A stretch of 64,000 bases of DNA from Nitrospinaceae bacterium (GTDB lineage Bacteria; Nitrospinota; Nitrospinia; Nitrospinales; Nitrospinaceae), in contig OZ245011.1 in NCBI GenBank assembly GCA_965223665.1, positions 2,240,001 to 2,304,000 of the forward strand. Reading direction: 5' to 3'. The stretch's first letter is position 1. Each line of letters starts with the position of its first letter. Below are positions 558 through 21,500 of this stretch, piece by piece. A program made the position numbers and the translations under genes. Under the pieces are notes generated by a model. That model saw only the letters and a list, made by a program, of their open reading frames with translations. It was not told where the DNA came from and made no database searches.

Positions 558-1565
558 ATGGAAAAGCACTCACCGATTCCTGTTTTTGTTTTTATCGCCT
601 TCCTATTTATTCCAATTTCTAATGCTTATGCAGCTTGTAACAAACCAAGTGGCATACCGCAATTTGACTCAGACTCTTATTACCAATCAGCCATTGGTAA
701 AACTGGCGATTCGTTAAAATCCGAGTTAAATAAAATTATTAAGAAGCATCATAGACATTCTTATAGTTGCGTGTGGAATATACTTAGAGAATCGGATGAA
801 GATCCTGATAATCCAGACAATGTAATTCTTTTATACACAGGAAGAAGCCAGGACAAATCAAGAAGAGATCAAGGTGGGAATGATCAAAACGCTTGGAACA
901 GAGAACATGTTTGGGCCAAATCTCATGGATTTAAAAGTAAAGGGCAACATGCCCATACAGATGCGCACCACTTAAGACCTACAGATAAATCTGTTAACGC
1001 GGATAGAGGTAACAAGGATTTTGCAAACGGTGGTTCTCCCAATAATGAATGTACTTTATGTAAATCCACTTCTACAACATGGGAACCTCCTGATGCTGTA
1101 AAAGGAGACGTTGCCCGAATGATGTTTTACATGGTAGTTAGATATGAAGGAGAGGATCAATCAAGCACACCGGATTTAGAGCTTGTTGAAAGGTCAACAT
1201 TTGTTGGTTCTCCACGTTTTGGAAAACTGTGTGATTTGTACGGGTGGCATAAACAAGATCAAGTGAGTGATTGGGAAAAGCAAAGGAATTCAGTGGTTTA
1301 TTCCTGGCAGGGTAATAGCAATCCGTTTATTGATCATCCAGAGTTTGCTCAGGCAATCTGGGGTGAAAAGTGTCATGACACAGGACCAGTTGAGCCACCA
1401 GTGGACCCTGAGCCTGATCCAGAGATTCCAGATCCTGAGGTTCCTCAACCTGTACCTGACCACCCCGAACCGGAGGAGCCAAATCCCATTGACAAAGAAA
1501 AATTGGATGGAATTATCAAATCTTTAGAAGAGATTCTTGAAGAAATCCGAAAATTGAGAGAATAA
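558..1565 (+). CDS. Secreted endonuclease I family nuclease (EndA/Bsn-like) with Pro/Glu-rich linker and C-terminal short coiled coil
   Basis: Signal peptide ending AYA; WNREHVWAKSHG, TDAHHLRPTD, NADRGNKDF, KGDVARMMFYMVVRY and QGNSNPFIDHPE motifs. Confidence 0.85.
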   Translation: MEKHSPIPVFVFIAFLFIPISNAYAACNKPSGIPQFDSDSYYQSAIGKTGDSLKSELNKIIKKHHRHSYSCVWNILRESDEDPDNPDNVILLYTGRSQDKSRRDQGGNDQNAWNREHVWAKSHGFKSKGQHAHTDAHHLRPTDKSVNADRGNKDFANGGSPNNECTLCKSTSTTWEPPDAVKGDVARMMFYMVVRYEGEDQSSTPDLELVERSTFVGSPRFGKLCDLYGWHKQDQVSDWEKQRNSVVYSWQGNSNPFIDHPEFAQAIWGEKCHDTGPVEPPVDPEPDPEIPDPEVPQPVPDHPEPEEPNPIDKEKLDGIIKSLEEILEEIRKLRE

Positions 1566-2216: not shown

Positions 2217-3380
2217 ATGAAAGAAATTATTACTAAATCCACATCACGAGTGACGGCTCAAGTTTCCGATATTGCTCTTAGGGAGACTATTACTACACGC
2301 TTGATATTTCGTCCCATCATAATAGACAATCCCAATAATCGTGAAGCTTCTATAAAGGGTAATTTTCTATTTCAAAGAAAATCGAAAAACTCTCAATGGG
2401 AAGATTTTGAAACTACCCCTTTATCTAAGCTTAAAAGTGGGGAAGGTTTTAAGCTTGAACTTAAGTCTAGTGAATTACTTAAATTAGTAGATGAGATTAA
2501 ACCTTTATATGATCTCCATAAAAATGAAGGTGTTCCCAGAGGTCAAAAGAAATTCGTTCGCGCAACCCCACAACTTGAACAACTAGCATCTCTTACTGAT
2601 GATGATATTTCCAATTATTTAGATGCTAATACTACGATTGGTGCAACATTATTAACAAAACTATTAAATTGGGCTATAAACCTCGATGATCCAACCCCTC
2701 TAATCGAACGATTGGTTGAGCTTAATCCTAAATCTCTTGAAAAATTAAATGCTGCAGTGGGGCTGCAAAGTCTAAAAACTGCACTCGCTACTTGGCAGAA
2801 AAACGTGTGCAATTCAGATGAAGAATTTTGGCAGAAGACTTTAACAGAACATTCATTCGTACTAGAGCAAGCATTTTCATGGCCAACTTCAATTGTCAAA
2901 GGAAAGGCATATGTAAGTGGAAAGTCTGTATTTAACACAGGCGGTAATCTAGTAGATTTTTTGATGAAAAACAGCCTAACTCAAAGTGCTGCCCTTATTG
3001 AAATTAAAACACCTTCAACAAATTTAGTGGGACCTGAATATCGTACAGGAATTTACAATATATCAAGTGAGTTATCTGGCTCGATAATGCAAATTTTGAA
3101 TTATAAGCATTCATTGCAAGAAGACTTCACCATTTTAACAAAAGAGACACCTGATCTTTTCGATTCTTTTAATCCACAGTGTGTAGTAATAGTCGGTAAT
3201 ACTGGGAACGAACTAGATAATCAAAATAAGACGAAGTCATTCGAGCTATATCGCCATCAGTTCCAAAGTGTAACAATAATCTCATACGATGAATTGTTTC
3301 AAAAAATTAAAAACCTTATTAGATTACTGGAAAATCCTATTGAAAATGAAAGTTTTGACGAAGCTGAAATTCCTTTTTAA
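2217..3380 (+). CDS. sduA: Shedu anti-phage nuclease (DUF4263)
   Basis: C-terminal EEFWQKTL..DFL..LIEIKTP..ELSGSIMQILNY..IISYDELF pattern of the Shedu PD-(D/E)xK domain; variable N-terminal domain. Confidence 0.85.
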   Translation: MKEIITKSTSRVTAQVSDIALRETITTRLIFRPIIIDNPNNREASIKGNFLFQRKSKNSQWEDFETTPLSKLKSGEGFKLELKSSELLKLVDEIKPLYDLHKNEGVPRGQKKFVRATPQLEQLASLTDDDISNYLDANTTIGATLLTKLLNWAINLDDPTPLIERLVELNPKSLEKLNAAVGLQSLKTALATWQKNVCNSDEEFWQKTLTEHSFVLEQAFSWPTSIVKGKAYVSGKSVFNTGGNLVDFLMKNSLTQSAALIEIKTPSTNLVGPEYRTGIYNISSELSGSIMQILNYKHSLQEDFTILTKETPDLFDSFNPQCVVIVGNTGNELDNQNKTKSFELYRHQFQSVTIISYDELFQKIKNLIRLLENPIENESFDEAEIPF

Positions 3381-3454: not shown

Positions 3455-3530
3455 CCGTCTATATAATTATTCATGAATTTTTTTTGGAATTTTCAGGTTT
3501 TATTTCTTGAAAGAGGAGCCAAGGCGATTT

Positions 3531-4259
3531 ATGAGTGACGACAACAAAGAAGTTAAGAGCTCAAGCGGTTGTAACTGGTACGTTTTTGTTCCATCATTTT
3601 TATTCCTATTGTCGGGGACATTGTTTTTTGGGGTAAAAGAACAACCCGCAGAAATGGGTCTAGCTATTATCGCCGGAGCCATAGGAATGGCCTTTTCCAG
3701 CCTAGATAAATTTGAGTTTTTTAAAGGTGCCGGTTTCGAGGCAAAAACAAGGGAACTTCGGAAAGTCGTTACCGAGGGGAATGAAACTCTTGAAAGGCTT
3801 AGGACGGTTACACTTTTTTCGGCAGAATCAGTTTTGACGCAAGTCATAGCAATGGGCAGATGGGGGGTGGATCTAAGACTAAGAAATGAAACCAAAGCCA
3901 AGGTGGACAGAATTTTAAAGATTATAAATGCCAATCCAGATGAAATCGCCGAAGTTGAAAAGTATTGGAGGAAATACACAATCTGTGATTACATCTTCCA
4001 TATTTTAGGAGGAAGCACAGTACCGGACGGGTTTGATGGAGACGAAACAAAGGAATGGCAGGAGCTTAGGAGGGGTCTTATAGATAACCCACCCAGCCCT
4101 AAAAAATTACGAGACTTTCTAACGAAGTACGGCATGCTCGACACGGAGAGAGAAGGTTTGATAAAGGATTACGAATATTATCTGGAAAACTCTATCCACA
4201 GGGATGAAGAAGCATGGGAAAACCGAGTTGACAAGAGATTGGTTAAAAACTCTTCCTGA
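3531..4259 (+). CDS. Hypothetical protein with N-terminal two-TM hairpin (candidate defence gene)
   Basis: GAGGAG then ATG at 3531; two hydrophobic segments followed by a helical soluble domain; defence-island context. Confidence 0.7.
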   Translation: MSDDNKEVKSSSGCNWYVFVPSFLFLLSGTLFFGVKEQPAEMGLAIIAGAIGMAFSSLDKFEFFKGAGFEAKTRELRKVVTEGNETLERLRTVTLFSAESVLTQVIAMGRWGVDLRLRNETKAKVDRILKIINANPDEIAEVEKYWRKYTICDYIFHILGGSTVPDGFDGDETKEWQELRRGLIDNPPSPKKLRDFLTKYGMLDTEREGLIKDYEYYLENSIHRDEEAWENRVDKRLVKNSS

Positions 4260-4405: not shown

Positions 4406-5701
4406 ATGATGGCAAAAAATCAAAATCAGACAGAATTTGCAAAGCTTCTTAAAAACACAGGGTTTTCCAAGGTAGAGCTTGCCGAACGCATCGGATACAA
4501 CGTCAGAACTATTTACCGGTGGGAGAAAGGAGAAACCCGCCCGAGAAAAGCCATCCTGGATCTTGTCCGTGAAGTAGCAGCTTCTTCCGGAAAAATTCGC
4601 AATCGTTCTCCCAAGGAGTTTGGTTTTAATTTCATTGATCTTTTCGCCGGTATAGGTGGACTCCGGGCAGGGTTTGAAAAAATTGGCGGGAAATGCGTTT
4701 TCACCAGTGAATGGAATGAGCCCTGTCTCCATACCTATCGGGCCAACTTCTCTTGTGATCATGAAATTGAGGGAGATATCACAAAGGTTCCTGAGCACAA
4801 GGTTCCACCTCATGATGTTTTACTGGCGGGTTTTCCCTGCCAGCCTTTTTCCATTGCGGGAGTTTCAAAGAAAAATGCCCTTGGCAGACCACACGGTTTT
4901 TTGTGTGACGCGCAGGGGACCCTGTTTTTTGATGTCGCCCGAATCATTGCGCACCACAAGCCCGCTGTCTTTCTCCTTGAGAATGTAAAAAACCTGATAA
5001 GCCATGACAAGGGAAATACCTTTCGTGTGATCAGGAAAACCCTGGAAGAGGAACTTGGTTATCATATTGACTGGCGGGTAATAAATGCCAAACCCTTTGT
5101 CCCCCAGAACAGGGAAAGAATTTTTATTGCCGGTTTCAGGGAAAATACAAGGTTTGATTTTAATGATCTGGTTTTACCCCCCGAAGAAAACTGGCCTTCT
5201 ATGGTTTCCGTTCTCCATCCGGAAGACGGCTCAGAGCCGGATGAACCACCCTATACCATTGGATCGAGGGGAAAGGTTAATCCCAAATACACCCTTTCTG
5301 AAAAATTATGGACCTATCTTCAAAACTATGCCCAAAAGCATCGCGAAAAAGGCAATGGTTTCGGGTTCGGTCTGGTTGGTAAAAACGACGTAGCCCGAAC
5401 ACTGTCAGCCAGATACTACAAGGATGGTTCTGAAGTTCTGGTACGTCAACGCGGAAGAAGGCCACGCCGCCTGACCCCCCGCGAGTGTGCCCGTCTTATG
5501 GGATTTGATCAGCCAGGGAAACCTCTCTTCCGGATCCCTGTTTCTGATACACAAGCCTATAAACAGTTTGGCAATGCAGTTGTGGTTCCGGTTGTCGAGG
5601 CCGTTGCCGGGTTTATGCTTCCTCATATCCAGCAGGTGATTCATGGAAATTCAAGGCAACAAAAACTTTTTTCTGAAGAGATGCTGTTAGAAGCCGTTTG
5701 A
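4406..5701 (+). CDS. dcm: C5-cytosine DNA methyltransferase (Dcm/M.EcoRII-like, likely CCWGG) with N-terminal HTH
   Basis: [54 protein letters not shown]-terminal [23 protein letters not shown]. Confidence 0.92.
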
Positions 5702-5705
5702 AGCT

Positions 5706-6176
5706 ATGGCTGACATTGTATCCCCCGAAACCCGCAGTCGCATGATGTCCGGAATAAAGGGAAAGGATACTCGCCCTGAACTTTTGATCAGAAAAGGACT
5801 TCATGCCAAAGGACACAGATACCGTCTTCATGTAAAAAGTCTTTCCGGCAAACCTGATCTGGTTTTTCCGAAATACAGGGCTGTTATTCTGGTTCATGGT
5901 TGTTTCTGGCATGGCCATAACTGCCATCTTTTTAAATGGCCATCCACAAGGAAGGATTTCTGGCGTCAAAAGATCACTGGAAATCAGAAAAATGATTCCA
6001 AAAACCTTGCAGCCCTGAAAGAAGATAACTGGAGAGTTATGACCATATGGGAATGTGCCCTCAAGGGCCGCGAACGAATTCCCCTGAATGAAATAATCGA
6101 TAAGGCAGCTGAGTGGCTGTTATCAAACAGGCTCGCAATGGAAATCAGGGGAAGAAAAAAAAGAGATCGGGAATGA
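5706..6176 (+). CDS. vsr: Very short patch repair endonuclease
   Basis: MADIVSPETRSRMMSGIKGKDTRPE, GKPDLV, HGCFWHGH, WECAL. Confidence 0.95.
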   Translation: MADIVSPETRSRMMSGIKGKDTRPELLIRKGLHAKGHRYRLHVKSLSGKPDLVFPKYRAVILVHGCFWHGHNCHLFKWPSTRKDFWRQKITGNQKNDSKNLAALKEDNWRVMTIWECALKGRERIPLNEIIDKAAEWLLSNRLAMEIRGRKKRDRE

Positions 6177-7390
6177 AAAAAGGTTTTCTGTCCGAATATT
6201 TTGAAGGCGTTGCTGCCAAACGATTGAGTGTCGTTGAAGTTGACCCTGCCAGCTCAAACCAGCATGAATTTAATGGAGTGAAAGCCCTGAAACAACTTCT
6301 CGGACCTGAAAGGTTAAATGATATTCCTGTCCGTTTTGTCTGGCTTGGTGAAGAAAACGAAGGTTTGTCTGAAGATTCCCATGTGACCTGGTATGATTCG
6401 CGGGAAAACCATCCGACAAGATCAGAATACCGCCTTTACTTCAAGTCCAACCCGGTCATGGAAATGGCCCGTGAAGGTGATTTGCTGGTTGTTGCCAAAA
6501 GACCTGGTGGTGAACTGATGATAATTATTGCGAGTCAGGGGACTACTATAGAAAACCAGTTGATATGGCTTTTCGGAGTTTCCGTCCAGATAGGGACAGG
6601 TTTTGAGTTTCGGGAGTTGGATGAGCAACAGGATATGGAAGTTGATTTTGCTGTCCGCTTTATTCTGGAAGAACTCGGAATTGAAATTGAGGAACCGGAA
6701 GCCGACCTGTTTGACAGGTTGCTTGAACCTTTTCAGGGCATGTTCCCCAAGACTGCCGAATTTTCTGCCTTTGCAAGAAAAACCCTCTCTGATGTTTCAC
6801 CCATGGATGACCCGGACGCGGCCCTGATAGCCTGGATAGAAAGAGAGGAAAAACTTTTCAGGAGACTGGAACGACACATTGTTTCTGACCGTTTAAAGGA
6901 AGGATTTGCCGGGCCCGAGGGTGCGGATGTAGATGGCTTTATCAGTTTTTCGCTTAGTGTCCAGAATCGCCGAAAATCAAGAATGGGATACTCTCTGGAA
7001 CACCATCTTGAAGAAATATTTTGTTTGCGGGGTATCCGGTATGACAGGAATAAAGTAACTGAAAACAATTCCAAACCGGATTTTTTGTTTCCAGGACAAA
7101 CAGAATATAGGGACCAAAACTTTTCTTCCCTGAAACTTTCCATGCTGGGTGTAAAATCAACCTGCAAGGATCGATGGCGACAGGTTCTTTCCGAGGCCGC
7201 CAGAATACCGGACAAACATCTGCTTACACTGGAACCCGGTATTAGTGAGAACCAGACAAAAGAAATGATGTCCAACCGGCTTCAGCTTGTCATTCCAACC
7301 GGTCTTCATGAGACCTATCAACCTGCCCAGAAGGAATGGCTTATGAATGTAACAGAATTTATCCAACTGGTTCAGGAGCGTCAGGAATGA
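6173..7390 (+). CDS. EcoRII-family type II restriction endonuclease
   Basis: SNQHEFNG N-terminal motif; SVQNRRKSRMG, KPDFLFP, KSTCKDRWRQVLSEA of the EcoRII catalytic domain; ATGA overlap with vsr stop. Confidence 0.88.
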   Translation: MKKGFLSEYFEGVAAKRLSVVEVDPASSNQHEFNGVKALKQLLGPERLNDIPVRFVWLGEENEGLSEDSHVTWYDSRENHPTRSEYRLYFKSNPVMEMAREGDLLVVAKRPGGELMIIIASQGTTIENQLIWLFGVSVQIGTGFEFRELDEQQDMEVDFAVRFILEELGIEIEEPEADLFDRLLEPFQGMFPKTAEFSAFARKTLSDVSPMDDPDAALIAWIEREEKLFRRLERHIVSDRLKEGFAGPEGADVDGFISFSLSVQNRRKSRMGYSLEHHLEEIFCLRGIRYDRNKVTENNSKPDFLFPGQTEYRDQNFSSLKLSMLGVKSTCKDRWRQVLSEAARIPDKHLLTLEPGISENQTKEMMSNRLQLVIPTGLHETYQPAQKEWLMNVTEFIQLVQERQE

Positions 7391-7470: not shown

Positions 7471-8200
7471 AACACTACCCTTCCTTTTTTTCATCTCCGG
7501 CTTGGGCTTGCATCCGTAAACCGAAAGGAGTAGGATTTGGAGTAATTTCCGTTCTATATTATATGGGCTTAGAAATCTGTTAATCCTCATTGGAAAATTT
7601 GATGGCTGAACCTAGTTCCAAAAATCAGGATTCCAAAAACACCAAAACCCACGACACCGTCATGGGCGATAAAGTCGTGGGAGACAAAGTAATAGGCGAT
7701 AAGGTTGGAGGTGACAAGTTTACGGGTGACAAATTTGTTATTGGTATCACCTTAGAAGAACATCACGCGTATTTGCAAAAACGGGAAGCGCAAATCCGCG
7801 CAGAGTTGGCGGAAGAACGCGGGAAAGATCAGGATCGGATTCAGGAATTAGAACTGGAGTTAAGTGCCATTGAAGGCAAACAGGCCAACCTGGAACAATC
7901 TCATAAAGATTATATTGAACAACTGGAAGCTACCAACACGGATTTACAGAAATTCAAAGATCAGTTTTCTCCCGAACAAATGCAGCAAGCCGAAGAAGCT
8001 TTAGCAAGAGGTGATTTATCTGAAGCCGATCAGTTATTTAAAGAACTGGAAGAAAATAAAGAGCGACTGATTTTAATTGAAGAACAAGCCCTGGTCCATT
8101 ATAGGAGAGGAAAAATTGCCCAAGATTCAGTGAACTACCGGGAGGCCTTGAAGCAATACGAACGCGCCTCGCAACTGGCACCAGAGAATGGAACTTATTT
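7471..8200 (+). repeat. Copy 1 of diverged direct duplication (upstream region plus 5' part of TPR gene)
   Basis: Shares GGCTTGGGCTTGCATCCG.AAACCGAAAGGAGTAGGATTTGGA and the coding 5' region with 10148-10880. Confidence 0.9.
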
Positions 8201-9788
8201 AAATTCGACTGGTTTGCTATTTGATACCCTTGGGCAATACGATCGGGCCATTGAATACTACGAGAAAGCGCTTGCCAGTAATCTCAAAACCCTTGGCGAG
8301 AAGCCCCCCAGGGTAGCCTGCATTTGGAATAACCTGGGATTGGCTTTCCGAGACAAGGGTGAATACGACCGAGCCATTGAATACTACGAGAAAGCGCTTG
8401 CCAGTAATCTCAAAACCCTTGGCGAGAAGTCCGCCCAGGTAGCCTACAATTGGAACAACCTCGGAATAGTTTGGGCTGACAAAGGCGATTACGACCGCGC
8501 CATTGAATACTACGAGAAAGCGCTGGGCAATTTTCTCAACACCTTTGGCAAAGAGCACCCTGATGTCGCCCGCTGTTGGAATAACCTGGGATTTGCTTTC
8601 CGAGACAAGGGTGAGTACGACCGCGCCATTGAATACTACGAGAAAGCGCTACACAATGCTGTCAATACATTTAGCGAAGACCATCCTCTTGTCGCCACCT
8701 GTTGGAGCAATCTGGGGGCGACTTGGAATGTTAAGGGTGATCACGACCAGGCCATTGAATACCACGAGAAAGCGCTTGCCAGTGATCTCAAAACCTTTGG
8801 CGAAGACCATCCTAATGTCGCCCGCTGTTGGATCAACCTGGGATTGGTTTTCAAAGACAAGGGTGAGTACGACCGGGCCATTGAATATTACGAGAAAGCG
8901 CTACACAATGCTGTCAATACATTTGGTGAAGACAATCCTCTTGTAGCCACCTGTTGGATCAACCTGGGAGGGGCCTGGAATGCCAAGGGTGATCACGACA
9001 AGGCCATTGAATACTTTGAGAAAGCGCTTCACAGTAATTTGGAAACTTTTGGCGAAGAGCACCCTAATGTCGCCGGCTGTTGGATCAACCTGGGGGCGGT
9101 TTGGAATGATGTCAAGAGTGATCACGACCAGGCCATTGAATACTTTGAGAAAGCGCTGTGCAGTTTTCTCAACACCTTTGGCGAAGAGCACCCTGATGTG
9201 GCCCTCATTTGGATGAACCTCGGAATAGCTTGGGCTGACAAAGGCGATTACGACCGGGCCATTGAATACCACGAGAAAGCGCTTCACAGTAATTTGGAAA
9301 CTCTTGGCGAAAAGCACCCTGATGTGGCCACCTGTTGGACCAACCTGGGAGGGGCCTGGAATGCCAAGGGTGATCACGACCAGGCCATTGAATACTTTGA
9401 GAAAGCGCTTCACAGTAATTTGGAAACTCTTGGCGAAGAGCACCCGGGTTTGGCCCGCATTTGGAATAACCTGGGAGGGGCCTGGAATGCCAAGGGTGAT
9501 CACGACCAGGCCATTGAATACTTTGAGAAAGCGCTACACAATCGACTGGAAACCTTTGGCGAAGATCACCCTGATTTAGCCAGCATTTGGAACAACTTGG
9601 GAATGGCTTGGGCTGACAAAGGGGATTACGACCGGGCCATTGAATATTACGAGAAAACCCTGCTTATTGGTCTAAACACCTTGGGAAAAGATCATCCAAT
9701 GGTGAAATTGGCATTAAAGAATATTGAGGTTATTCATTTAAAAATGAACCCACTCAAATGGTTTTGGAAAAAACTTTGGCCATTTTAA
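7602..9788 (+). CDS. GDKxx-pentapeptide / coiled-coil / 42-aa TPR array protein, paralog 1 (about 12 repeats)
   Basis: ATG 7602 aligns with paralog start MAEP; repeats AxxWxNLGxxWxxKGxYDxAIEYYEKALxxxLxTFGExHPxV. Confidence 0.9.
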   Translation: MAEPSSKNQDSKNTKTHDTVMGDKVVGDKVIGDKVGGDKFTGDKFVIGITLEEHHAYLQKREAQIRAELAEERGKDQDRIQELELELSAIEGKQANLEQSHKDYIEQLEATNTDLQKFKDQFSPEQMQQAEEALARGDLSEADQLFKELEENKERLILIEEQALVHYRRGKIAQDSVNYREALKQYERASQLAPENGTYLNSTGLLFDTLGQYDRAIEYYEKALASNLKTLGEKPPRVACIWNNLGLAFRDKGEYDRAIEYYEKALASNLKTLGEKSAQVAYNWNNLGIVWADKGDYDRAIEYYEKALGNFLNTFGKEHPDVARCWNNLGFAFRDKGEYDRAIEYYEKALHNAVNTFSEDHPLVATCWSNLGATWNVKGDHDQAIEYHEKALASDLKTFGEDHPNVARCWINLGLVFKDKGEYDRAIEYYEKALHNAVNTFGEDNPLVATCWINLGGAWNAKGDHDKAIEYFEKALHSNLETFGEEHPNVAGCWINLGAVWNDVKSDHDQAIEYFEKALCSFLNTFGEEHPDVALIWMNLGIAWADKGDYDRAIEYHEKALHSNLETLGEKHPDVATCWTNLGGAWNAKGDHDQAIEYFEKALHSNLETLGEEHPGLARIWNNLGGAWNAKGDHDQAIEYFEKALHNRLETFGEDHPDLASIWNNLGMAWADKGDYDRAIEYYEKTLLIGLNTLGKDHPMVKLALKNIEVIHLKMNPLKWFWKKLWPF
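8190..9700 (+). repeat. Tandem ~126-bp coding repeats (42-aa TPR units)
   Basis: GCCATTGAATAC...GAGAAAGCGCT recurs every 126 nt (one unit 129 nt). Confidence 0.92.
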
Positions 9789-10016
9789 TAAGAAATTTCG
9801 ATACAAAAAAATATTTTGAAAAATAATTAGAATTTCATTAAAGCCATACCTTATAAACAACTTCAGCAGGAAAAAAATGACTGGCGTAACTAATTGGCTA
9901 CACTCCAGCTAATTTTCTCACCTCTCTTATTTAACTTTTGTTGGTTCTGCCAAACCTCTAATTATCTCTCCCTTTTTCAAATTCAATTTTTGTTCTGGGA
10001 AACAGCGAATATTTGA

Positions 10017-10121
10017 TTACTTCCTATCCAATTTGTTTTCTATCCGGTCGAGTTGTTTCCCAAATCGTTCATGGGATTCATCGTTGGATTTGCGGAATTC
10101 CTCAAAGACATCTTTTTCCAA
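10017..10121 (-). pseudogene. 3' remnant of a homolog of the prophage terminal gene at 12063-12302
   Basis: Translates LEKDVFEEFRKSNDESHERFGKQLDRIENKLDRK*, against LEKDVFEEFRKSNDESHERFGKQLDRIEGKLDGR* in the intact gene; 5' half absent. Confidence 0.9.
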
Positions 10122-10147
10122 TCTCTCCTTTCTTCATTGCTCCAATG

Positions 10148-10880
10148 AACCTACCCCCTTCCCTTTTTCCACTCCCGGCTTGGGCTTGCATCCGAAAACC
10201 GAAAGGAGTAGGATTTGGATTAATTTCCTTTCTATATTATATGGGCTTAAAAATCTGTTTATTCTCATTGGAAAATTATATGGCTGAACCTAACTCTAAA
10301 GATCAAAAATCTAAAAAAGCCAATCCCAAAACAGAAGACACCGTCATCGGCGATAATGTGGTGGGCGACAAAATATTAGGCGATAAGATTGGAGGCGACA
10401 AGTTTACGGGTGACAAATTTGTCATTGGTATCACCCTGGAAGAACACCATGCGTTTTTGCAAAAACGGGAAGCGGAGATCCGCGCCGAGTTGGCTGAAGA
10501 GCGTGGGAAAGATCAAGATCGGATTCAGGAATTGGAACTGGAATTAAGTGCCATTGAAGGCAAACAGGCCAACCTGGAACAATCTTATAAAGATCACATT
10601 GAACAGCTGCAAGCCACCAATACGGATTTACAGAAGTTCAAAGATCAGTTTTCTCCCGAACAAATGCAACAAGCTGAGGAAGCTTTAGCTAGGGGTGATT
10701 TATCTGAGGCCGATCAGTTATTTAAAGAACTGGAAGAAAATAAAGAGCGCTTGTCTTTAATCGAAGAACAAGCTTTGGTTCATTATAGGAGAGGAAAAAT
10801 TGCCGAGGAAGCCGCGGACTATCGTGAGGCCCTGAAGCAATTCGAACGGGCGGCGCAACTGGCACCGGAGAATGGAATTT
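10148..10880 (+). repeat. Copy 2 of diverged direct duplication
   Basis: Aligns with 7471-8200. Confidence 0.9.
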
Positions 10881-12046
10881 ATTTATCGGATACCGGCGTT
10901 CTTTATTTAACCCTTGGTCAATACAACCAGGCCATTAAATTCCATGAGAAAGCGCTCAAGAGCGATTTGAAAACCTTTGGAGAAGATCATCCTAGTGTAG
11001 CTTATGATTGGAACAACCTGGGTGCGACCTGGGTTAAAAAAGGAGATTACGACCGGGCCATTGAATACTACGAGAAAGCACTTGCCAGTATTCTGAAATC
11101 CTTGAGTGAAGACCACCCTAACGTCGCCGCATGTTGGAACAACCTGGGATTGATTTGGGCTGGCAAAGAAGATTACGACCAGGCTATTAAATACTACGAG
11201 AAAGCGCTCTCCAGTACTCTAAAATCCTTGGGTGAAGAACACCCTAAAGTCGCCACAGTATGGAGCAACCTGGGATTGGTTTGGGCTGGCAAAGGAGATT
11301 ACGACCGGGCCATTGAATACTACGAGAAAGCGCTTCACAGTGATCTCAACACCTTTGGCGAGGATCATCCCAGTGTCGCTACAAGGTGGAACAACCTAGG
11401 AGGGGCTTGGGGAAACAAAGAAGATTACGACCGGGCCATTGAATACTACGAGAAAGCGCTTCACAGTGATCTCAACAACTTTGGTGAAGAACACCCTACA
11501 GTCGCCACAGTTTGGAGGAACCTGGGAGGGGCTTGGGAAAACAAAGAAGTTTACGACCGGGCCATTGAATACTACGAGAAAGCCCTTCACAGTGATCTCA
11601 ACACCTTTGGCGAGGATCACGACAGAGTTGCCGAAATTTGGAGCAACCTGGGAGGGGCTTGGGATAAAAAGGGAGATTACGACCAGGCCATTGAATACTA
11701 CGAGAAAGCACTTGCCAGTATTCTGAAATCCTTGAGTGAAGACCACCCTAAAGTCGCCGCATGTTGGAGCAACCTGGGAGTGGCTTGGGCTGGAAAAGGA
11801 GATTACGACCGGGCCATTGAATACTACGAGAAAGCGCTTCACAGTGATCTCAACACCTTTGGCGAGGATCACCCCAGTGTCGCCACAAATTGGACCAAGC
11901 TTGGAGTGGCTTGGGCTAAAAAAGGAGATTACGACCAAGCCCATAATCACATCGCGAAAGCGTCGATGATTTTTGAGAAGATTGGTTTAAATGAAATTGC
12001 AGTGATGGTACAAAGCGAATTCGATGCCATGAGGAAACAAAAGTAA
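10280..12046 (+). CDS. GDKxx-pentapeptide / coiled-coil / 42-aa TPR array protein, paralog 2 (about 9 repeats)
   Basis: ATG 10280 (MAEPNSK) aligns with paralog 1; the ORF-track extension to 10013 runs through non-coding and remnant DNA. Confidence 0.9.
   Translation: MAEPNSKDQKSKKANPKTEDTVIGDNVVGDKILGDKIGGDKFTGDKFVIGITLEEHHAFLQKREAEIRAELAEERGKDQDRIQELELELSAIEGKQANLEQSYKDHIEQLQATNTDLQKFKDQFSPEQMQQAEEALARGDLSEADQLFKELEENKERLSLIEEQALVHYRRGKIAEEAADYREALKQFERAAQLAPENGIYLSDTGVLYLTLGQYNQAIKFHEKALKSDLKTFGEDHPSVAYDWNNLGATWVKKGDYDRAIEYYEKALASILKSLSEDHPNVAACWNNLGLIWAGKEDYDQAIKYYEKALSSTLKSLGEEHPKVATVWSNLGLVWAGKGDYDRAIEYYEKALHSDLNTFGEDHPSVATRWNNLGGAWGNKEDYDRAIEYYEKALHSDLNNFGEEHPTVATVWRNLGGAWENKEVYDRAIEYYEKALHSDLNTFGEDHDRVAEIWSNLGGAWDKKGDYDQAIEYYEKALASILKSLSEDHPKVAACWSNLGVAWAGKGDYDRAIEYYEKALHSDLNTFGEDHPSVATNWTKLGVAWAKKGDYDQAHNHIAKASMIFEKIGLNEIAVMVQSEFDAMRKQK
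10873..11960 (+). repeat. Tandem 126-bp coding repeats (42-aa TPR units)
   Basis: GATTACGACCGGGCCATTGAATACTACGAGAAAGC recurs at 126-nt period. Confidence 0.92.
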
Positions 12047-12062
12047 ACCAAAATATATTCCT

Positions 12063-12302
12063 CTACCGCCCATCCAACTTTCCTTCAATTCGATCCAATT
12101 GTTTGCCAAATCTTTCATGGGATTCATCGTTGGATTTACGGAATTCTTCGAAGACATCTTTTTCCAGTTTTTCATTATCAAGTTTTTCAATCCGATCATG
12201 AGCCCGATCGATTCGATTATTGATCCGCTTCACCAACCAACCAATGGCGGCCACGATTCCACCCCCGATCCACATCCAAACGTCTTTATGATTTCCGTCC
12301 AT
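12063..12302 (-). CDS. Small single-TM + coiled-coil phage protein (holin/XhlA-like candidate)
   Basis: VWMWIGGGIVAAIGWLV TM then RIDRAHDRIEKL...LDRIEGKLD; last gene of late operon. Confidence 0.6.
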   Translation of the reverse strand: MDGNHKDVWMWIGGGIVAAIGWLVKRINNRIDRAHDRIEKLDNEKLEKDVFEEFRKSNDESHERFGKQLDRIEGKLDGR

Positions 12303-13731: not shown

Positions 13732-14040
13732 TTATCGCTCGATGATTTGAAAATAAATTGTACGTTCTGCTTTTTGGCCGTTATCTGTAACAATTTGACA
13801 GGTCAATCCGTGTGTATTATTTAACGTTCCGTCTTTTACGCGAACGGTAACAATTCCATTCGCCTGAGACTCTTGAACTTTGGTGATCCCGCCGGCCTCT
13901 GGTGTAAGCGTAAAATCAAGAATCGATTCCTCTTCCTCCAACCAATCATTCCAATCGATGCTGTAATCCAATTCTTCATCTTTATCTTTAAAAATGGTCG
14001 GGCCGCGGGTTTTATCTTCAAAAAAACTTGTTGTGCTCAT
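13732..14040 (-). CDS. Phage fibre/tail adaptor-like protein
   Basis: KDKDEELDYSIDWNDWL...TCQIVTDNGQKAERTI motif typical of small phage adaptor proteins. Confidence 0.6.
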   Translation of the reverse strand: MSTTSFFEDKTRGPTIFKDKDEELDYSIDWNDWLEEEESILDFTLTPEAGGITKVQESQANGIVTVRVKDGTLNNTHGLTCQIVTDNGQKAERTIYFQIIER

Positions 14041-16460
14041 TGATTCACCTCAACTTTATAAACACGATTTTCATATGGGATCGTATATTTCCGGATCTCT
14101 TCAGGGACCGCATAAGTGCGAAGTGGATCCACATCCAAAATCCAAACCAATAGAGTATTTGGATCTATACCCAAGGCACTAGCAGCTGCAGCCGACGGAG
14201 TTAAAGTGATCGGCCCTAAAAAATAATTCGGATCCAAACTTGTGACGCGAGTTCCGGCCGCTACGGGTTGAATAAAAATTCCGCCGGAAAATACTGAGGG
14301 ATCCACAACCAGTGATTTAGAAACGGCCGGTCCCGGTGAGAGGGTGATCCCTCCTAACTCAATAACAGGATCTTGGCCGATGCTTATAACGTTGGCTGGA
14401 TTGGGTGAAACCGTCAGACCGCCCAGAATTAGATTTCCATCCAAAGCATTGACGATGGCGGCCGCGGATCCCGGATTGAGTACTAATCCCCCTAACACCG
14501 TTCCAGGATCCACGGCCAAGGCTCGCAGCCCGGAAACATTACCACTAATTGTGATACTACCCAAAATAACCACCGCTTCGGTGGCGAATACTTTTGCGAT
14601 CGCAGGATTGGGTGAAATACGAATACTTGTATCCACATTGGGATCGATTACCAAGGCCCGGGAAGCTGCAGTGGTTGAAATGATGGTGATCCCACCCAGC
14701 ACCACACCCGGATCTAAACCCAAAGCCACGGCCGCCGCGGTTCCACCGGTTAAAGTAATTCCGCCTGACTCCACTGTGGGGTTCAGTGCGGCAGCAATAA
14801 CCGACGCGATCGATGGGTTGACCAGGATTCCACCCAGCACTACACCCGGATCCACGCCCTCAGTGCTGACAGCTGCTATTTCACCACTTATTGTGATTCC
14901 ACCTAAAATACTATTCGGATCTAAACCGAGTGCGCGGGCTGCGGCCGGATCCGGATTTAAAACTAAACTTGTGTCCACATTGGGATCGATGACTAATGCC
15001 CGGGCCGCTGCAGTTCCGCCGTTTAAAGTAATCCCACCTAACTGAACTGTGGGATTTAATGCGGTGGCGATGGCGGACGTGATCGACGGGTTGACCAGGA
15101 TTTCCCCAATCACCACTTGCGGATCCACACCCAACGCCTTGGCAGCTGCTATTTCTCCACTAATTGTGATTCCGCCTAAAATAATATTCGGATCAAAACT
15201 GAGTGTGCGGGCTGCGGCTAAGGTGGGCGTTAAGGTAATCCCTCCTAACTGGACTGAGGGATCCATCACTAAGGACCGAGCGGAGGCCGTGTTAGGAATA
15301 ATGGTGATTCCACTCAACACAGTGTTGGGATCCACCACAGCGGCTTTGGCCGATGCCGGTCCGGGTGTGACCGTGACACCGCTGGAAGGCTCCACCACCA
15401 AATAGGCGACCATGTTTTCGATTCTAAGATCCGCCGGACCCACAACTTTTCCACCCATTTGGAAAAACTGGGAAAGTGTCGGCACCACGTTGGCCGCTTC
15501 AGAAACTTTCATCAAAATGGTATTGGTGGCGTTGACGGTGACCACATCTTCCGTGAGCGTGTCCACATTGTTTCCGTAGATTATCGAATAAGTTGTGGAT
15601 CCACCGGTTCCTGCAGAAAAATCACCAATGATTTTACAACCCAGAACGTTGGTTCCACTTGCGTTGGAATCGCCACTCGGTCCTGACCGGGTACCACTAT
15701 TGGTGATCATTTCACCGGATCTCGGATCGCCTGTGTATTCTCCACGGTTACCGGCGCCAGTGGTGAATGGCGCCTGGGAAACTTTGCCCCAATCGCCCAC
15801 GTCAAAGGCGTCGCCCTGATCCTGGGTGCCACCATCGGTTTTTTGGTACATCAAGACATCAACGTCCCCCGCCGGTCCGTCGGTGATGTCTGTGGCATCG
15901 CTGTACCACAACCATTTTGAAAACCTTTGTGTTTTACCACCTCCAGAGGTTTTGAGTTCCAAATAATCGACGGTATTATTTCCGGTTTTGAAATCACAGG
16001 CTACGACGTTTGACACCTCGGTGCCATCGACTTCCATTTTAAAGGCGCCGCTGTTGGCATTTTGGAAGTAAATTTTTAATCGGTGTTTTTGCCCCAACGT
16101 GAACGGGTTGGTGATGGTATCTTTAACCGCTGCTTTAGAATCGATGACCTGGACATCACCGGTGGACTGAATGACACGCAATTCTAAAATTAAATTTCCG
16201 CCGGTATCAATGATATTGATGATATCGGAATCGCCAGTGTGGCCGGTATTGACCCGGGTGTAATAACCAATCACCACATGATTGTCCCCCGCCTTGGCGA
16301 CGGCATCAAAAATCAAAAACCGGGCACGGTCCCCTTGTTCACACACCAATTCGTAATCGCTGCCAATTAAAGAAACGACGGGTGTATTCGTGATCCCGTT
16401 GGTGACATCGGTTAAGTCCTGCGTTAAGAAAGCAAAGATCTGATTTAGGGTGAAAGCCAT
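14037..16460 (-). CDS. Phage fibre-like protein: N-terminal beta-sandwich domain plus ~28-aa GGITL..DP repeats
   Basis: About 15 repeats of GGITxxxxxAAAxALxxDPxVxL in C-terminal half; position among tail accessory genes. Confidence 0.7.
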   Translation of the reverse strand: MAFTLNQIFAFLTQDLTDVTNGITNTPVVSLIGSDYELVCEQGDRARFLIFDAVAKAGDNHVVIGYYTRVNTGHTGDSDIINIIDTGGNLILELRVIQSTGDVQVIDSKAAVKDTITNPFTLGQKHRLKIYFQNANSGAFKMEVDGTEVSNVVACDFKTGNNTVDYLELKTSGGGKTQRFSKWLWYSDATDITDGPAGDVDVLMYQKTDGGTQDQGDAFDVGDWGKVSQAPFTTGAGNRGEYTGDPRSGEMITNSGTRSGPSGDSNASGTNVLGCKIIGDFSAGTGGSTTYSIIYGNNVDTLTEDVVTVNATNTILMKVSEAANVVPTLSQFFQMGGKVVGPADLRIENMVAYLVVEPSSGVTVTPGPASAKAAVVDPNTVLSGITIIPNTASARSLVMDPSVQLGGITLTPTLAAARTLSFDPNIILGGITISGEIAAAKALGVDPQVVIGEILVNPSITSAIATALNPTVQLGGITLNGGTAAARALVIDPNVDTSLVLNPDPAAARALGLDPNSILGGITISGEIAAVSTEGVDPGVVLGGILVNPSIASVIAAALNPTVESGGITLTGGTAAAVALGLDPGVVLGGITIISTTAASRALVIDPNVDTSIRISPNPAIAKVFATEAVVILGSITISGNVSGLRALAVDPGTVLGGLVLNPGSAAAIVNALDGNLILGGLTVSPNPANVISIGQDPVIELGGITLSPGPAVSKSLVVDPSVFSGGIFIQPVAAGTRVTSLDPNYFLGPITLTPSAAAASALGIDPNTLLVWILDVDPLRTYAVPEEIRKYTIPYENRVYKVEVNQ

Positions 16461-17248: not shown

Positions 17249-18517
17249 TTATTGAGAGTTTTTGAGTTTTGCTTTAAAACAACTCACCCCGGCGGGCGCA
17301 CCACGGGTAAGTTCCTGGTTATCTAATTCCACATAGTTTTCATGAAACAATTCCAAAGTGTTTTCCCCATCTCTTTGCATTTGCCCCAGCTGCCGGACAA
17401 AGTCTGAAACCGGATCCACAAGCACCACCGTTTTTCCGGTGAGGTCGTTATTCATGAACGGATGTGGGATTAAGTTCATATCTGCATTTTTGATGGAATG
17501 ATTGATTTCCACCCAATCAAACTTTTCATCCTTTGCCAACAATCCCCCATTGACCAGGCGATCAAGCAATAGAGGTGCGTTCTTGGTTTCTTCCAATGTG
17601 GGTTTGTTCTCATACTGTTTAATAAATTTCTTTTTGGTGATTGGATCGATTCGGTCCGGACGGATTTTTGTCGGGCCATTGTTGGCCCACGGTGGTTCCG
17701 GAGCGTGGTACATGGCTTCGATCTTTCCCGATCCGTTTTCGACCAGGGCAAATAAAAACCCATGCACGTCGCCATCGTTTTGACTTAATTGATAAGGTGG
17801 GGACGCTTGAATGTAACGCTGTTGAGCATCGGCCGTACCTACTGTGCCGCCCTGATAATCAATATACATATTGATCAAGGTCGTATAAGTCGATGGCAAA
17901 ATTGCTAGAGAACCACTCAATTTTGCATTCACCGGTTGAGTGTTAATACTGTGTTTAATTTGCGGATAAAATCCATATTCTCCACCGGGCAGGGTTAAAT
18001 TAACACCCGGCAACCCCAGAAACCCGGTTGATACTTCACCGATGGCCGTTTTTAAAGAGTTTTGATTTACGCTATCCGCCGGTGGAATGAGATCGTCCCA
18101 CACCGGGGTTTGATTGGGACCCGCGCTTTTTAAAATTTGCCCAGCCACACCGGCACCTAAATCGATGGGAACTCCATTGAGATCGTAAACTAAAACACCA
18201 CCCCCCGTTCCATGCGCGATTTTTGCTAACGTGACCGCATCATCCAGGATCAAAACGGTGGTAATGATTCCATTTTGATTCGGTAATAGATTTAAATAAT
18301 CCGCATCAAGAGTCCCAACTTTATTCCAAGCGGTATTCGCTCCATTACGTTTCCAGAGTTCATTGACGTTTCTATTTCGCCACCACATACCCGGATAAGC
18401 CGGGTTGGGCTCATCTGTCCCATCAAACATTGTCACCAAGGCGTCGTTGATATCATTATTTTGCTGACGGAAAAGTGCCCGGGAAATATTTTGAATAAAC
18501 ATGTTTGGCGTGGTCAT
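17249..18517 (-). CDS. Tail fibre protein
   Basis: Follows tail tip gene; INDAL..MFDGTDEP..AYPGMWW..LWKRNGANTAW N-terminal anchor; DDAVTLAKIA repeat. Confidence 0.7.
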   Translation of the reverse strand: MTTPNMFIQNISRALFRQQNNDINDALVTMFDGTDEPNPAYPGMWWRNRNVNELWKRNGANTAWNKVGTLDADYLNLLPNQNGIITTVLILDDAVTLAKIAHGTGGGVLVYDLNGVPIDLGAGVAGQILKSAGPNQTPVWDDLIPPADSVNQNSLKTAIGEVSTGFLGLPGVNLTLPGGEYGFYPQIKHSINTQPVNAKLSGSLAILPSTYTTLINMYIDYQGGTVGTADAQQRYIQASPPYQLSQNDGDVHGFLFALVENGSGKIEAMYHAPEPPWANNGPTKIRPDRIDPITKKKFIKQYENKPTLEETKNAPLLLDRLVNGGLLAKDEKFDWVEINHSIKNADMNLIPHPFMNNDLTGKTVVLVDPVSDFVRQLGQMQRDGENTLELFHENYVELDNQELTRGAPAGVSCFKAKLKNSQ

Positions 18518-21500
18518 TAAAATCCCTCCACGTGATAATTAAATGATTTTTGGATACTAACCTGGCTTGAATCAAAAAACTGGACAGTGAACCCACTGTT
18601 GGTGGCGTTGGTAATTTGGTAAGTGTCACCGCTGCTATTGTCATAAGTGAGCACCGCGAAATTAGGCTCTACATAAAAGGGCCGATCAAAATTAAACGAT
18701 GTTCCCCCGACCTGTGCGGTAAGACCTTTTTTGGTTTCAGTCCGCTTCTTTAAATAGACATGCTGCTTTAAAACGGACACACTGACGTTTTGGTCCACGG
18801 CGTTGGAAATGAGTAACATTCGGGTTTGAATGGCCCTGGCTTTAAAGTCGCTGACCAGGAAGTTTTGCCATGCCGACCATACCGGACTGGCTCCGGGATC
18901 GTCCTCCGTGTAGTGGAATTGCATTTGAATGTTGGCTCGATCCGCGTCTTCCCCATCCCATAATTCGGGACTGTCGACCAAATCTTCCGAATCTATCAAA
19001 TCGCTTTGTAAAAAAGTGACGGCATCAATTTCGAACGCCAGGCGAATGTTTTCATACACGTTCCCTAAGTCCACCACACCTTGAAAATCGTAAGTGGCCA
19101 GCGGGATCACTTCGCTATTCCCATCGAGATCAATTTCCAACTTGGTGGCGTTGACACTGCAATCGGTTTTGGTTCCAAGGAACCCTCCTCCGGATTCATC
19201 ACTTTCCACGGCCAGGTGGAGAAAAGGAATTTCCCCGGTTTGAGAAACCGCAGCGGCCGCATTGACGGAAGCGTTCCCACCCAAATCGATCGCTTTCACT
19301 AAATAAGTTCCGGGTAAAAGGGGCAAGGTCACCTGTGTGTTGTCGGGTGGAACTTCCGGACCAATATCCACGGCCGACGCCCAGGTGGCGCCGGATGTTT
19401 TAGAGGAATGGCGAACGCGGATCCTTCCCCCGTTGGTGACATCGATGTCCGTTACCGGATCCCAACTGAGCACCACACTATGATCGATAATATTCAACGT
19501 GAGGTTTTGAATATCATCGGGTGGTGTGGATCCTCCAATCACTAAATGGTTATTGATTTTACTAAATGGGCTGAACGTTTCGTCTTCATACTTAAACCGC
19601 AAATGGATATCATAAACTTCCTTCTCCATAATATTTCGAATACTGATTTCCCGGGCGTCCGGAGCCACCGGCGGAATCCAGTCCCATCGACCGTTGGTCC
19701 CTGCAGGTCGGATCCTTCCTTCAATGGCCGTAGCATTCGATGGAATATTTTGGGTAAGAGATAAGGAAATCACGATGCGTGGTTCTAAAATACCGGTGGG
19801 TCCAATTTCCATTACCGTTTCATCACTTTTCACCTGGGCGACAAAAGGTTCAGTTAAGACTTGCTCCGGAGTGATTTGGCTATTGTGATCGGGAATCACT
19901 CCACTATCGGCATCCTGAATGGCCGGCGCATGATCCACACACACAAGCCTGGCATTCTTTCCCCCAAGCGGTTGGATCTCTTTGATCAAAAGTTCCACTG
20001 TTTCGGATCCAGTTTGACCAAATGCAACCAGGTCCCCCACCTTGGGAGCATTGGCAATAGGTACCAGGGGCGAAAGGTTCACGGTTTTAGAGGTCCCGGG
20101 AACAGTGGATAAACCCAAATTGACCTGGGTGTTGTCTTCCAACCTTCCACGAATTGAATAATTTTTTCCCGTGAGCATGGTCATTTCCTCATCGAGCACA
20201 ATTTGAGTTACATTGACCGTGTCATCGATGACCTGTTTCACCCGACCCTGGGCAATTCCCCAAAGCGGAACATCATGAACGGCTCGAATGAGATCACCCC
20301 GACGGCAAACCAGGTTTTCCACGTCTGCAGAAAAAGTATAAATCTCCGGCCGCAATCTCAAAGTGGCTATGTGATATCGGGCAAGCTTCCAAATTTGTTC
20401 CGGATTGGTCACGCCCGTGAATTCCATGGTGGCAAACTTCGTGGCGTTGGTTTCGTCGAACCCGTCGTCGTAAACAATCCGTTCGTCCTGGGTAAATTCT
20501 TTTTCTTCATTGATAAAACGAACGCGAAAGCCATGGGGTTTATCACTGTAGACAATCTTTCCGCTAAAGCTTCCCTTTAACATATTGCGCGGGGTGAACA
20601 TTTGACACGGAGTGGTTTGGGGCTGGTCAATGACCACACTCCATTTCCCATCACGGTTCGTGGGTGATGCACGGCCAGCGGCCAGGATATCGCGAACCAT
20701 TTCTCCTACGCTCGATTGGAAATCCACCACAATGTTGAAAGTGAATCCTTTGGCCACACAATAATCGTGAAACGCTTGCAGACCTGGAATATCCACACGG
20801 GTGTCGGGTAAGGGAGAATCGTCCCCCGGGAACTGCCAAACGTGGCGAGCCAATGCACTTGGGTTATTACTCACTTGCTCCACCCAGGCGGATCCATTCC
20901 AGTCCTTCACAATGGATTTCACGGTGGCGCTGTATTTATCGATCACGCCCGAAAGTTGGTCGGTAGCACGGATGCGCAAAGCCGTGGCGGCAACGGGTTT
21001 ATGGAATTGAATCGGGTTTTCGTTGGTAAAGGTGCGGAGCGCAGTCCACATGGCCACACCTGGGTGGAGATTGACATCGGTGGGATCGGGCGTGATCCTG
21101 CGGATCCGTATATCGTATTGACCGCGGCTCGGCATTTTAATCCGTTGCCCTTTACGAAACAGAGTCACTTGATTAGCGGCCACGGCTAAATTTGGATGCT
21201 GGGTCCAGGTTCCGGCGCCGGTGGGACTGGTTTCGATTTCAAATTCTATTTCCGTTAAAGCGGCCGGGTGAAACTTTAGAAACCCAAATTCCATTTGGAT
21301 CCCGCGCGGAAAGGTGAGGTCAAAAGAGATTTCATCACAATCGGGTTGGGTGGTGCGAAGGATCCAATCGTCCACCTGGTGGACGGTAATTTGTAACGCT
21401 TCCTCAAAGACCTGGTCCGGGAATAGGGTGAGGGCTGGATCCGAGTCGAATCCCTGGACCGTTTCGATTTCCACATCTTCAAATTCGTTAATGTCCGTTT

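Follow-up and report, generated by a model that had tools for sequence, protein, structure and literature searches.

Two tandem tetratricopeptide repeat (TPR) genes, which we designate A and B, lie in a 64,000-nucleotide (nt) stretch of a Nitrospinaceae bacterium genome (GCA_965223665.1, contig OZ245011.1, positions 2,240,001 to 2,304,000 of the forward strand; hereafter the window, numbered from its first letter). Both genes are cargo of a single tRNA-Glu prophage. Judging from sequence comparison, they belong to a lineage-expanded family whose short N-terminal motif, alone or together with the helical module that follows it, recurs on caspase, NACHT, iSTAND-like and small secreted or membrane proteins. 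To us the two proteins resemble the ligand-binding components of a conflict network more than they do ordinary scaffolds. Our favoured reading, which we judge to be about evenly poised, is that they are ligand sensors or adaptors free of any nucleoside triphosphatase (NTPase) and coupled through homotypic N-terminal motifs. A first-pass annotation of the window, made from the letters alone, had described them as hypervariable receptors resembling NOD-like receptors (NLRs) but lacking an NTPase.

Layout and duplication of genes A and B

The first-pass annotation had noted two tandem TPR paralogs with about 12 and 9 repeats, and this was borne out by 12 and 9 helix-B anchors, equivalent to 11 and 8 full units plus a cap. 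The features of the locus are as follows.

7478-7601 (+): region upstream of gene A, duplicated along with the gene; its copy lies at 10156-10279, upstream of gene B
7602-9788 (+): gene A, 728 amino acids (aa); pentapeptide motif, helical N-terminal module, TPR array
7665-7739 (+): gene A pentapeptide motif, residues 22-46, five GDK(V/F)x, ending just before IGITLEEH
7740-8096 (+): gene A helical N-terminal module, residues 47-165
8238-9626 (+): gene A array, 11 units, of 42 residues except for a single one of 43
9627-9785 (+): gene A degenerate twelfth unit and C-terminal cap
10017-10121 (-): relic of a small membrane-protein gene, 34 aa, with an intact counterpart at 12063-12302; marks the end of the duplicated unit
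10280-12046 (+): gene B, 588 aa; architecture as gene A
10349-10423 (+): gene B pentapeptide motif, residues 24-48
10424-10780 (+): gene B helical N-terminal module, placed by alignment; 89% nt identity to gene A over 300 nt
10922-11929 (+): gene B array, 8 units of 42 residues; cap at 11930-12043
12063-12302 (-): 79-aa open reading frame (ORF) with an N-terminal hydrophobic helix; convergent with gene B, on the same strand as the late genes of the phage

The duplicated unit comprised the upstream region, the gene and part of the small downstream gene, and direct repeats were found at 7478-7645 and 10156-10323 (D4, 86% identity) and at 10009-10130 and 12055-12176 (D5, 80% identity). The 79-aa ORF had weak PHROG matches only (phrog_1009, E 6.4e-5). 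The N-termini of A and B, about 200 aa in length, had been called near-identical; similar is the better word, as they shared 86% aa identity over 210 aa (86-89% at the nt level) with a synonymous divergence (dS) of 0.57. Their dN/dS of 0.13 places them under purifying selection. A consensus scan for sigma-70 promoters and terminators returned fewer sites than in shuffled sequence. One public contig (run X3) joined position 12188 back to 7475 with 27 other letters between, most likely reflecting the tandem duplication or a paralog; it could also represent a third tandem copy in a related strain.

The AlphaFold2 model of gene A had a mean pLDDT of 87.7 and a pTM of 0.81. Residues 1-43 fell below a pLDDT of 50 and were modelled as disordered, while the protein was predicted to be all-helical from residue 51 to its end, leaving no room for an NTPase fold. 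Neither NACHT nor NB-ARC was detected in the N-terminal 210 aa of either protein (Pfam, E<=0.01), and the remainder was all TPR helices; whole-protein Pfam matches were drawn from the best 25 of 40 and 38 matching families for A and B, respectively. The absence of an NTPase proposed in the first-pass annotation is therefore true of A and B themselves, but it does not extend to the wider network, in which family member F8 is followed by a motif-bearing NACHT protein. Both A and B carry C-terminal superstructure-forming repeats, a feature of NLR/STAND receptors.

Repeat arrays and the pattern of variation

Tandem Repeats Finder resolved a period of 126 nt in both genes, with 11.3 copies and 77% matches in A (8238-9663) and 8.1 copies and 80% matches in B (10922-11936), as well as higher-order periods of 378 and 252 nt. 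Helix-B anchors were spaced by 42 residues in A, once by 43, and each array closed with a degenerate cap. Matches to Pfam TPR_12 (A 446 bits, E 8.8e-137; B 286.6 bits, E 4.8e-87; gathering cut-off 30.1) and TPR_10 (287.2 and 190.4 bits; gathering cut-off 27.5) were strong. Both proteins carry tandem 42-residue units that exceed the Pfam cut-off, and in the AlphaFold2 model of gene A the helices are paired along the whole array, as in a helix-turn-helix solenoid. The best Foldseek matches of the gene A model were CTPR, OGT and kinesin light chain (KLC), and the closest natural solved structures by sequence were KLC1 7ai4 (E 3.7e-47), 4y6w (E 1.1e-22) and 5o01 (E 2.2e-16), with 4y6c also matched.

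For the analysis of variation, the unit register was set at the Y of YDRAIEYYEKAL, giving 19 units once the caps A12 and B9 were dropped and one codon was removed from the 43-residue unit A7 to hold register. Positions 4, 5, 9-12, 27, 30, 33, 34 and 40 were invariant. As first described, helix B was nearly invariant even in DNA: codons 4-12 were almost fixed over the 19 units, with ATT, GAG and AAA each in 19/19, GCC in 18/19 and GCG in 16/19. The use of GAG at position 9 in all 19 units, against GAA at position 6, is less readily put down to codon bias than to homogenisation or a recombination anchor.

The ten highest-entropy positions of the 42 were 25, 28, 35, 15, 38, 39, 31, 29, 13 and 17. 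Alignment to consensus TPR proteins equated W30 with canonical position 4, so that unit positions 25, 28, 31, 35, 38 and 39 correspond to canonical TPR positions 33, 2, 5, 9, 12 and 13. In Magliery and Regan (PMC1261162), these positions, with 34, are given as the concave, ligand-contacting and most variable TPR sites. All six a priori concave positions were among our ten most variable (hypergeometric P = 4e-5), the concave assignment resting on canonical TPR numbering. The first-pass annotation had placed the variation on the groove, and this stood for the six concave sites; it had made no mention of positions 13, 15 and 17, which were also highly variable and sit in the C-terminal extension of helix B. 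Variability peaked at the same positions in 70 units drawn from 12 other paralogs (Spearman 0.75). Magliery and Regan describe variable groove positions as a general TPR feature, and groove variation on its own is consequently no mark of an immune receptor, contrary to what had been proposed.

Across all unit pairs, omega at the six groove sites was 1.83, against 0.19 for the remaining 32 positions, and reached 5.4 at positions 13, 15, 17 and 29, sites that were picked post hoc. When nine independent nearest repeat pairs were used, pN/pS was 1.22 at the groove six, 2.51 at the extra four and 0.29 at the other 32; counts of nonsynonymous versus synonymous changes differed from the framework for the groove six (Fisher P = 6e-4) and for the extra four (P = 1e-5). 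In these nine pairs dN/dS did not significantly exceed 1 at the groove six (binomial P = 0.31), the extra four (P = 0.22) or both together (P = 0.19), which lends the suggested rapid diversification under positive selection no significant support. Framework dS among units was approximately 0.5-0.6, indicating that the arrays are not very young.

Taken at its strongest, the first-pass description would make A and B rapidly diversifying receptors of the fungal NLR type, built by repeat shuffling and positive selection into a modular code. Several features of the arrays agree with this. The nearest unit lay in the same gene for 31/31 units of A, B and F3 (the closest paralog; A7, A12 and B9 excluded), the best unit pairs reached 88-94% nt identity, the nearly fixed helix-B codons are a possible recombination anchor, and Tandem Repeats Finder gave the higher-order periods. 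In genome G039, moreover, the third of three tandem family genes is split into three ORFs inside its array (L046 12060-14046), although this breakage looks like decay or an assembly error in a repetitive array. Fungal NLR repeats are, however, marked by high internal conservation, defined by Dyrka et al. 2014 (PMC4986451) as more than 85% unit identity over at least 100 aa, whereas mean unit identity was 65.7% aa in A and 68.3% in B, with a best pair of 85.7%. The locus was present in four sequencing runs of one study, none listed as RNA, and no repeat-number variant was seen in their contigs, which are short and fragmented and so constitute weak evidence. Given these values and the non-significant selection tests, we regard receptors of this type as distinctly unlikely.

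The N-terminal module and its family

The N-terminus of A and B consists of the five GDK(V/F)x pentapeptides, which run up to IGITLEEH, followed by a helical module of approximately 120 residues, whose helices in the gene A model span residues 51-72, 77-95, 97-116, 124-135 and 140-151. The module matched no Pfam family (E<=0.01) beyond weak TPR/BAR matches and no NCBIfam model, and no described effector-associated domain (EAD) model was among the Pfam matches of the A and B N-termini at the same threshold. A Foldseek search of the modelled module against the PDB returned 0 matches at E<=0.001, and a HeLo, MLKL or CC-like fold is accordingly not claimed. Residues 1-165 of gene A scored at best 0.83 in the ESM Atlas, against generic TPR clusters only, and a word-index protein search with the same residues gave 1,920 candidates and 0 at E<=1e-3. 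A contig search with a single protein query yielded 150 pattern stretches, 0 of which were confirmed by tblastn.

A profile built from 12 paralogous modules was more productive. In a full HMMER scan of 1.84 billion cluster representatives it matched 629 clusters at E<=1e-3 and 276 at E<=1e-10. TPR_12 was present in 85 of the 127 profile matches scanned, and an N-terminal TIR domain in seven of the 150 best (Pfam TIR_2 confirmed four of the ten examined). The anchor element could be placed in 100 of these 150 best matches; in those, the stretch of 35 residues before the module was rich in G and I and poor in K, L and P (14.7% G, 11.5% I, 3.6% K), and a hydrophobic helix preceded it in 48/100.

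Within this genome we identified 16 family ORFs (F1-F16), all of which matched the module profile. A hydrophobic, signal-peptide-like N-terminal segment was present in six, and in F4 as a seventh by eye. In F14 the module is followed by a caspase domain in place of TPRs (Peptidase_C14, E 5.8e-19), which scored 108.8 bits against the NCBIfam EACC1-associated caspase type NF047832, below the 140-bit cut-off. The last 4 bases of the TPR member F11 are shared with the start of F14, and the profile matches both; the module is therefore carried by a sensor-like and an effector protein of adjacent genes in the family, but not at A and B. Complex prediction with the F11 and F14 modules scored 0.02, and as the controls remained unfolded this weighs neither way. 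No NB-ARC domain above cut-off was found in the genome.

Among 41 related genomes, this one included, the module was present in six, with 16 copies here and 11 in a sister species. The sister species has no ortholog of A or B, its best match being 49-58% identical. In another genus, three tandem family genes lie beside HsdR-, HsdS- and HsdM-like genes of a type I restriction-modification (R-M) system, as assigned by eye. The closest paralog of A and B, F3, has 12 units and 84% N-terminal identity (contig C5, 26 kb; 18059-20341, -). Also on this contig are a TPR protein resembling Ser/Thr kinases, ORFs that by eye look RHS-like and FHA-like and, at its end, a weak NACHT-like match.

A plainer account is that A and B are generic TPR adaptors, acting as scaffold or chaperone in, for example, phage or envelope complex assembly, with one fixed extended ligand and no part in conflict. 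Hypervariable concave positions are typical of TPRs in general, the framework dS and non-significant dN/dS give no sign of young or positively selected arrays, no specific PADLOC defence model was matched, and the six secreted-looking paralogs resemble many envelope TPR proteins. The distribution and company of the family argue the other way. Its members are patchy among related genomes and multiply copied within them, they are fused or adjacent to caspase, NACHT and TIR domains, and A and B, which lack a sister-species ortholog, are grouped with the Shedu and R-M cargo on the strand opposite to the structural operon and outside it. We consider the scaffold account unlikely, while still giving it appreciable weight.

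Sharing of the N-terminal motif with neighbouring genes

A regular-expression scan for at least three pentapeptides identified 12 ORFs in the genome, seven of them family members (A, B, F3, F5, F8, F9 and F11). The five non-family carriers have the short motif only, without the module. They include a 669-aa NACHT protein encoded directly downstream of F8 (Pfam NACHT, 44.6 bits), and the motifs of F8 and this protein were reciprocal best matches (score 117). A 388-aa carrier gave a borderline iSTAND match (25 bits, cut-off 24), and a 189-aa carrier with a C-terminal hydrophobic tail is located upstream of F16 and F5. The last two carriers are small proteins encoded upstream of F4 and F7 with a G/N-rich motif at their C-termini, and these C-terminal motifs scored 86 and 81 as the two best matches of the N-terminal motif of F4. 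Pfam returned no match for three of the small motif-bearing proteins, and a Bell-type domain was not detected. In the sister species, the gene for a 184-aa tail-anchored protein comes after that of a 552-aa family member, and a GDVVHGDK-type variant of the motif can be read by eye in both.

Adjacent genes therefore share the motif in F8 and its NACHT neighbour, in F4 and its upstream gene, and in the TPR/184-aa pair of the sister species. A and B have only each other as motif-bearing neighbours, and their motifs were reciprocal best matches (score 175). At locus L030 of the sister species (G001; 72-794), two small ORFs stand ahead of the F8-like gene, one toxin-fragment-like and the other SUKH-type-immunity-like by eye; this would be a polymorphic-toxin context and not a NACHT neighbour.

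Prophage context and cargo genes

An exact 45-bp repeat corresponding to the 3' part of tRNA-Glu was found at 39196-39240, with a second copy lying 3,564-3,608 bases ahead of the window start. The left copy adjoins an integrase (phrog_1, E 1.2e-17) and a repressor-like helix-turn-helix protein (phrog_8, E 2.4e-11). Together with the structural module, these delimit an element of approximately 42.8 kb, a complete-looking prophage of siphovirus type occupying window positions 1-39240 plus the 3,608 bases before the window start. PHROG matches included tail fibre J (E 1.1e-112), tape measure (7.1e-93), major head (5.3e-153), portal (6.6e-105) and TerL (1.4e-247). Other than A and B, the mapped features of the element are the following.

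409 bases before the window start to 451 (+): ORF of 286 aa; no Pfam, PHROG, PADLOC or NCBIfam match
558-1565 (+): Endonuclease I (Pfam)
2217-3380 (+): Shedu SduA (PADLOC, E 2.6e-130; Pfam)
3507-4259 (+): ORF of 250 aa; no Pfam, PHROG, PADLOC or NCBIfam match
4406-5701 (+): Dcm (Pfam)
5706-6176 (+): Vsr (Pfam)
6113-7390 (+): EcoRII-C protein (Pfam)
12373-34249 (-): prophage structural module, tail spike to large terminase (PHROGs)
39196-39240: right attachment repeat, 45 bp, 3' part of tRNA-Glu
39197-39274: tRNA-Glu

Endonuclease I, Shedu, Dcm, Vsr, the EcoRII-C protein, A and B form a cargo block on the + strand. The Shedu gene, the Dcm-Vsr-EcoRII-type genes and the phage genes reported near A and B in the first-pass annotation are real (Pfam, PADLOC, PHROGs), but its placement of the pair between an R-M/Shedu island and a prophage was mistaken: A, B, Shedu and the R-M genes are all cargo inside the one prophage. 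The G+C content of A and B (47%) is close to that of the structural region (47.6%), compared with 38% for the chromosome.

Several other features of the element were observed. The 286-aa and 250-aa ORFs lie to either side of Endonuclease I and Shedu and may represent defence genes not yet characterised. A second TPR protein of unrelated type (35271-36875, +; 534 aa) begins with a hydrophobic stretch and has TPRs of the classical 34-residue type (Pfam TPR_2, E 5e-47). Beside the right attachment site, a 433-aa ORF (37764-39065, -) with a C-terminal DnaA_N domain (E 3.4e-12) and no PHROG match may be the phage replication initiator. In the tail region, an 807-aa protein (14037-16460, -) consists of many short G/I/L/P-rich repeats with a recurring LGGITL/ISG theme, and had a weak minor-tail PHROG match only. 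A second integrase-like ORF another 2-3 kb upstream of the left end suggests tandem islands at this site.

Carriage by a phage raises the possibility that A and B are decoys, that is, effector-less copies of host sensors whose GDKV motif plugs into the host network of NACHT, iSTAND-like and tail-anchored proteins and blocks or redirects it. Viral proteins consisting only of a RHIM or a death fold inhibit host cell-death signalling and offer an analogy. The pair is indeed prophage cargo with no linked effector and no ortholog in the sister species, the chromosome encodes GDKV-motif NACHT and iSTAND-like proteins, and after F3 the best match of the A and B motifs was the chromosomal 189-aa tail-anchored protein (scores 90 and 85). 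A simple plug would nevertheless have no need of long, intact TPR arrays with a diversified groove, and A and B sit among defence genes rather than early or anti-defence genes. We give the decoy account only a slim chance.

Proposed mode of action

On the sensor or adaptor reading, A and B would be a tandemly duplicated cytoplasmic ligand-binding pair carried as cargo by a temperate phage. The TPR groove, whose residues differ among units on a conserved framework, is envisaged to bind a cue, either protein or peptide, for which the host or a competing phage would be the likeliest source. Once the cue is bound, the motif and module would be free to enter homotypic association with further proteins bearing that motif, so that signalling would proceed by induced assembly rather than by an NTPase switch, following the logic of effector-associated domains and of the Bab/Agp system. 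The outcome may be defence or exclusion.

In its favour are the domain architecture, the concentration of variation in the groove, the purifying selection on the N-terminus, the family with its motif sharing between adjacent genes, and the setting among Shedu and R-M genes in the prophage cargo. A number of our results weigh against this reading. Variable groove positions are general in TPRs, positions 13 and 17 appear to face outward (a helical-wheel inference only), repeat identity lies below the high-internal-conservation threshold, and positive selection was not significant. PADLOC matched A and B to the generic TPR model PDLC01169 and otherwise to coiled-coil models at chance level only, and tblastn of the N-terminal module against 50,697 phage records gave no match. 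The A and B motif is rich in K and D, unlike BASS motifs, and amyloid or beta-solenoid character is hypothetical for it; described bacterial amyloid motifs are depleted in K, according to bioRxiv 10.1101/2020.01.06.895854. The regular-expression scan found no motif carrier in the window besides A and B, which leaves them with no linked effector, and the F8-NACHT adjacency was not seen in the 3.4 kb around the F8-like gene of the sister species. Lastly, the signal-peptide-like segments of six of the 16 paralogs would place that branch in the periplasm, which fits poorly with a picture of intracellular sensors.

A bolder version, in which we place very little confidence, accommodates both compartments. 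This unicellular marine nitrite-oxidiser lineage would possess a motif-coupled, largely NTPase-free network with two branches: a cytoplasmic one based on the GDKV motif, linking TPR sensors with NACHT, iSTAND-like and tail-anchored proteins, and a periplasmic one based on the G/N-rich motif, linking TPR sensors with the caspase and small secreted proteins. The phage would have captured two of the cytoplasmic sensors, thereby adding specificities to the host death machinery or jamming it. If true, phage and host would here for the first time be seen to exchange amyloid- or solenoid-like signalling motifs, and a periplasmic version would likewise be a first.

TPR arrays such as these tend to be labelled 'tetratricopeptide repeat protein' and passed over. 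In this case the N-terminal module, which has no family name, defines a family of at least 629 protein clusters, and module and short motif connect repeat sensors to caspase, NACHT NTPase and TIR domains and to small membrane proteins. Should the motif mediate induced assembly, the principle of Bab/Agp and fungal NLRs would extend to repeat-only sensors, to a phylum in which multicellularity is not known and, possibly, to the periplasm, and the module profile together with motif sharing between neighbouring genes would provide a searchable handle for such systems. Even if A and B are plain scaffolds, the annotation of the locus is corrected, the R-M/Shedu 'island' and the TPR genes being the cargo of one tRNA-Glu prophage.

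Comparison with known systems

The TPR domain of kinesin light chain and the bacterial BKLC have the same fold as A and B and gave the best natural structure matches (7ai4, 5o01). They are, however, cargo adaptors with six repeats, and they lack the pentapeptide motif, such an N-terminal module and a mobile-element context. The NB-ARC/NACHT NLRs of Podospora (Dyrka et al. 2014, PMC4986451; 4Y6C, 4Y6W) share with A and B the 42-residue KLC-type TPRs and variable sites on the concave face; unlike them, A and B have no NOD domain, and their internal identity is 66-68% as against at least 85%.

The EAD/EACC1-caspase systems (Kaur et al. 2020, PMC7159879) resemble the family as a whole. In both, one N-terminal module is carried by a repeat protein and a caspase of adjacent genes, many copies occur per genome and the copies in adjacent genes are the most alike; the caspase of F14 is itself similar to the EACC1 type. 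The family differs in having no MoxR-vWA or GTPase core, and its module matches no EAD model in Pfam. EACC1-caspase systems are tied to multicellular bacteria in the same paper.

By analogy, the closest known system is Bab/Agp (bioRxiv 10.1101/2024.11.07.622273), an antiphage amyloid signalling system of Escherichia coli prophage hotspots in which a TPR-GreA/B-C-PIN protein bears the BASS11 motif at its N-terminus and, through it, templates a small membrane protein. A and B differ from Agp, which carries GreA/B-C, PIN and BASS11, in consisting of the helical module and TPRs only, in their D/K-rich motif and in the lack of a partner gene beside them; these differences, and the hypothetical nature of motif assembly, are why we hold the sensor or adaptor reading no higher than even. 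The likenesses are a sensor without an NTPase, a short N-terminal motif (beta-prone in Bab/Agp) followed by TPRs, and location in a prophage defence island. The Bab/Agp layout, with the motif on an adjacent small membrane-targeting protein, is repeated elsewhere in this genome by F4 and F7 with their upstream small proteins and by the 189-aa protein with F16 and F5. The same motif-sharing logic is followed by the amyloid motifs associated with NLRs (bioRxiv 10.1101/2020.01.06.895854), and in Bab/Agp itself there is a precedent for TPR sensors that lack an NTPase, bear an N-terminal motif and reside in prophage defence hotspots.

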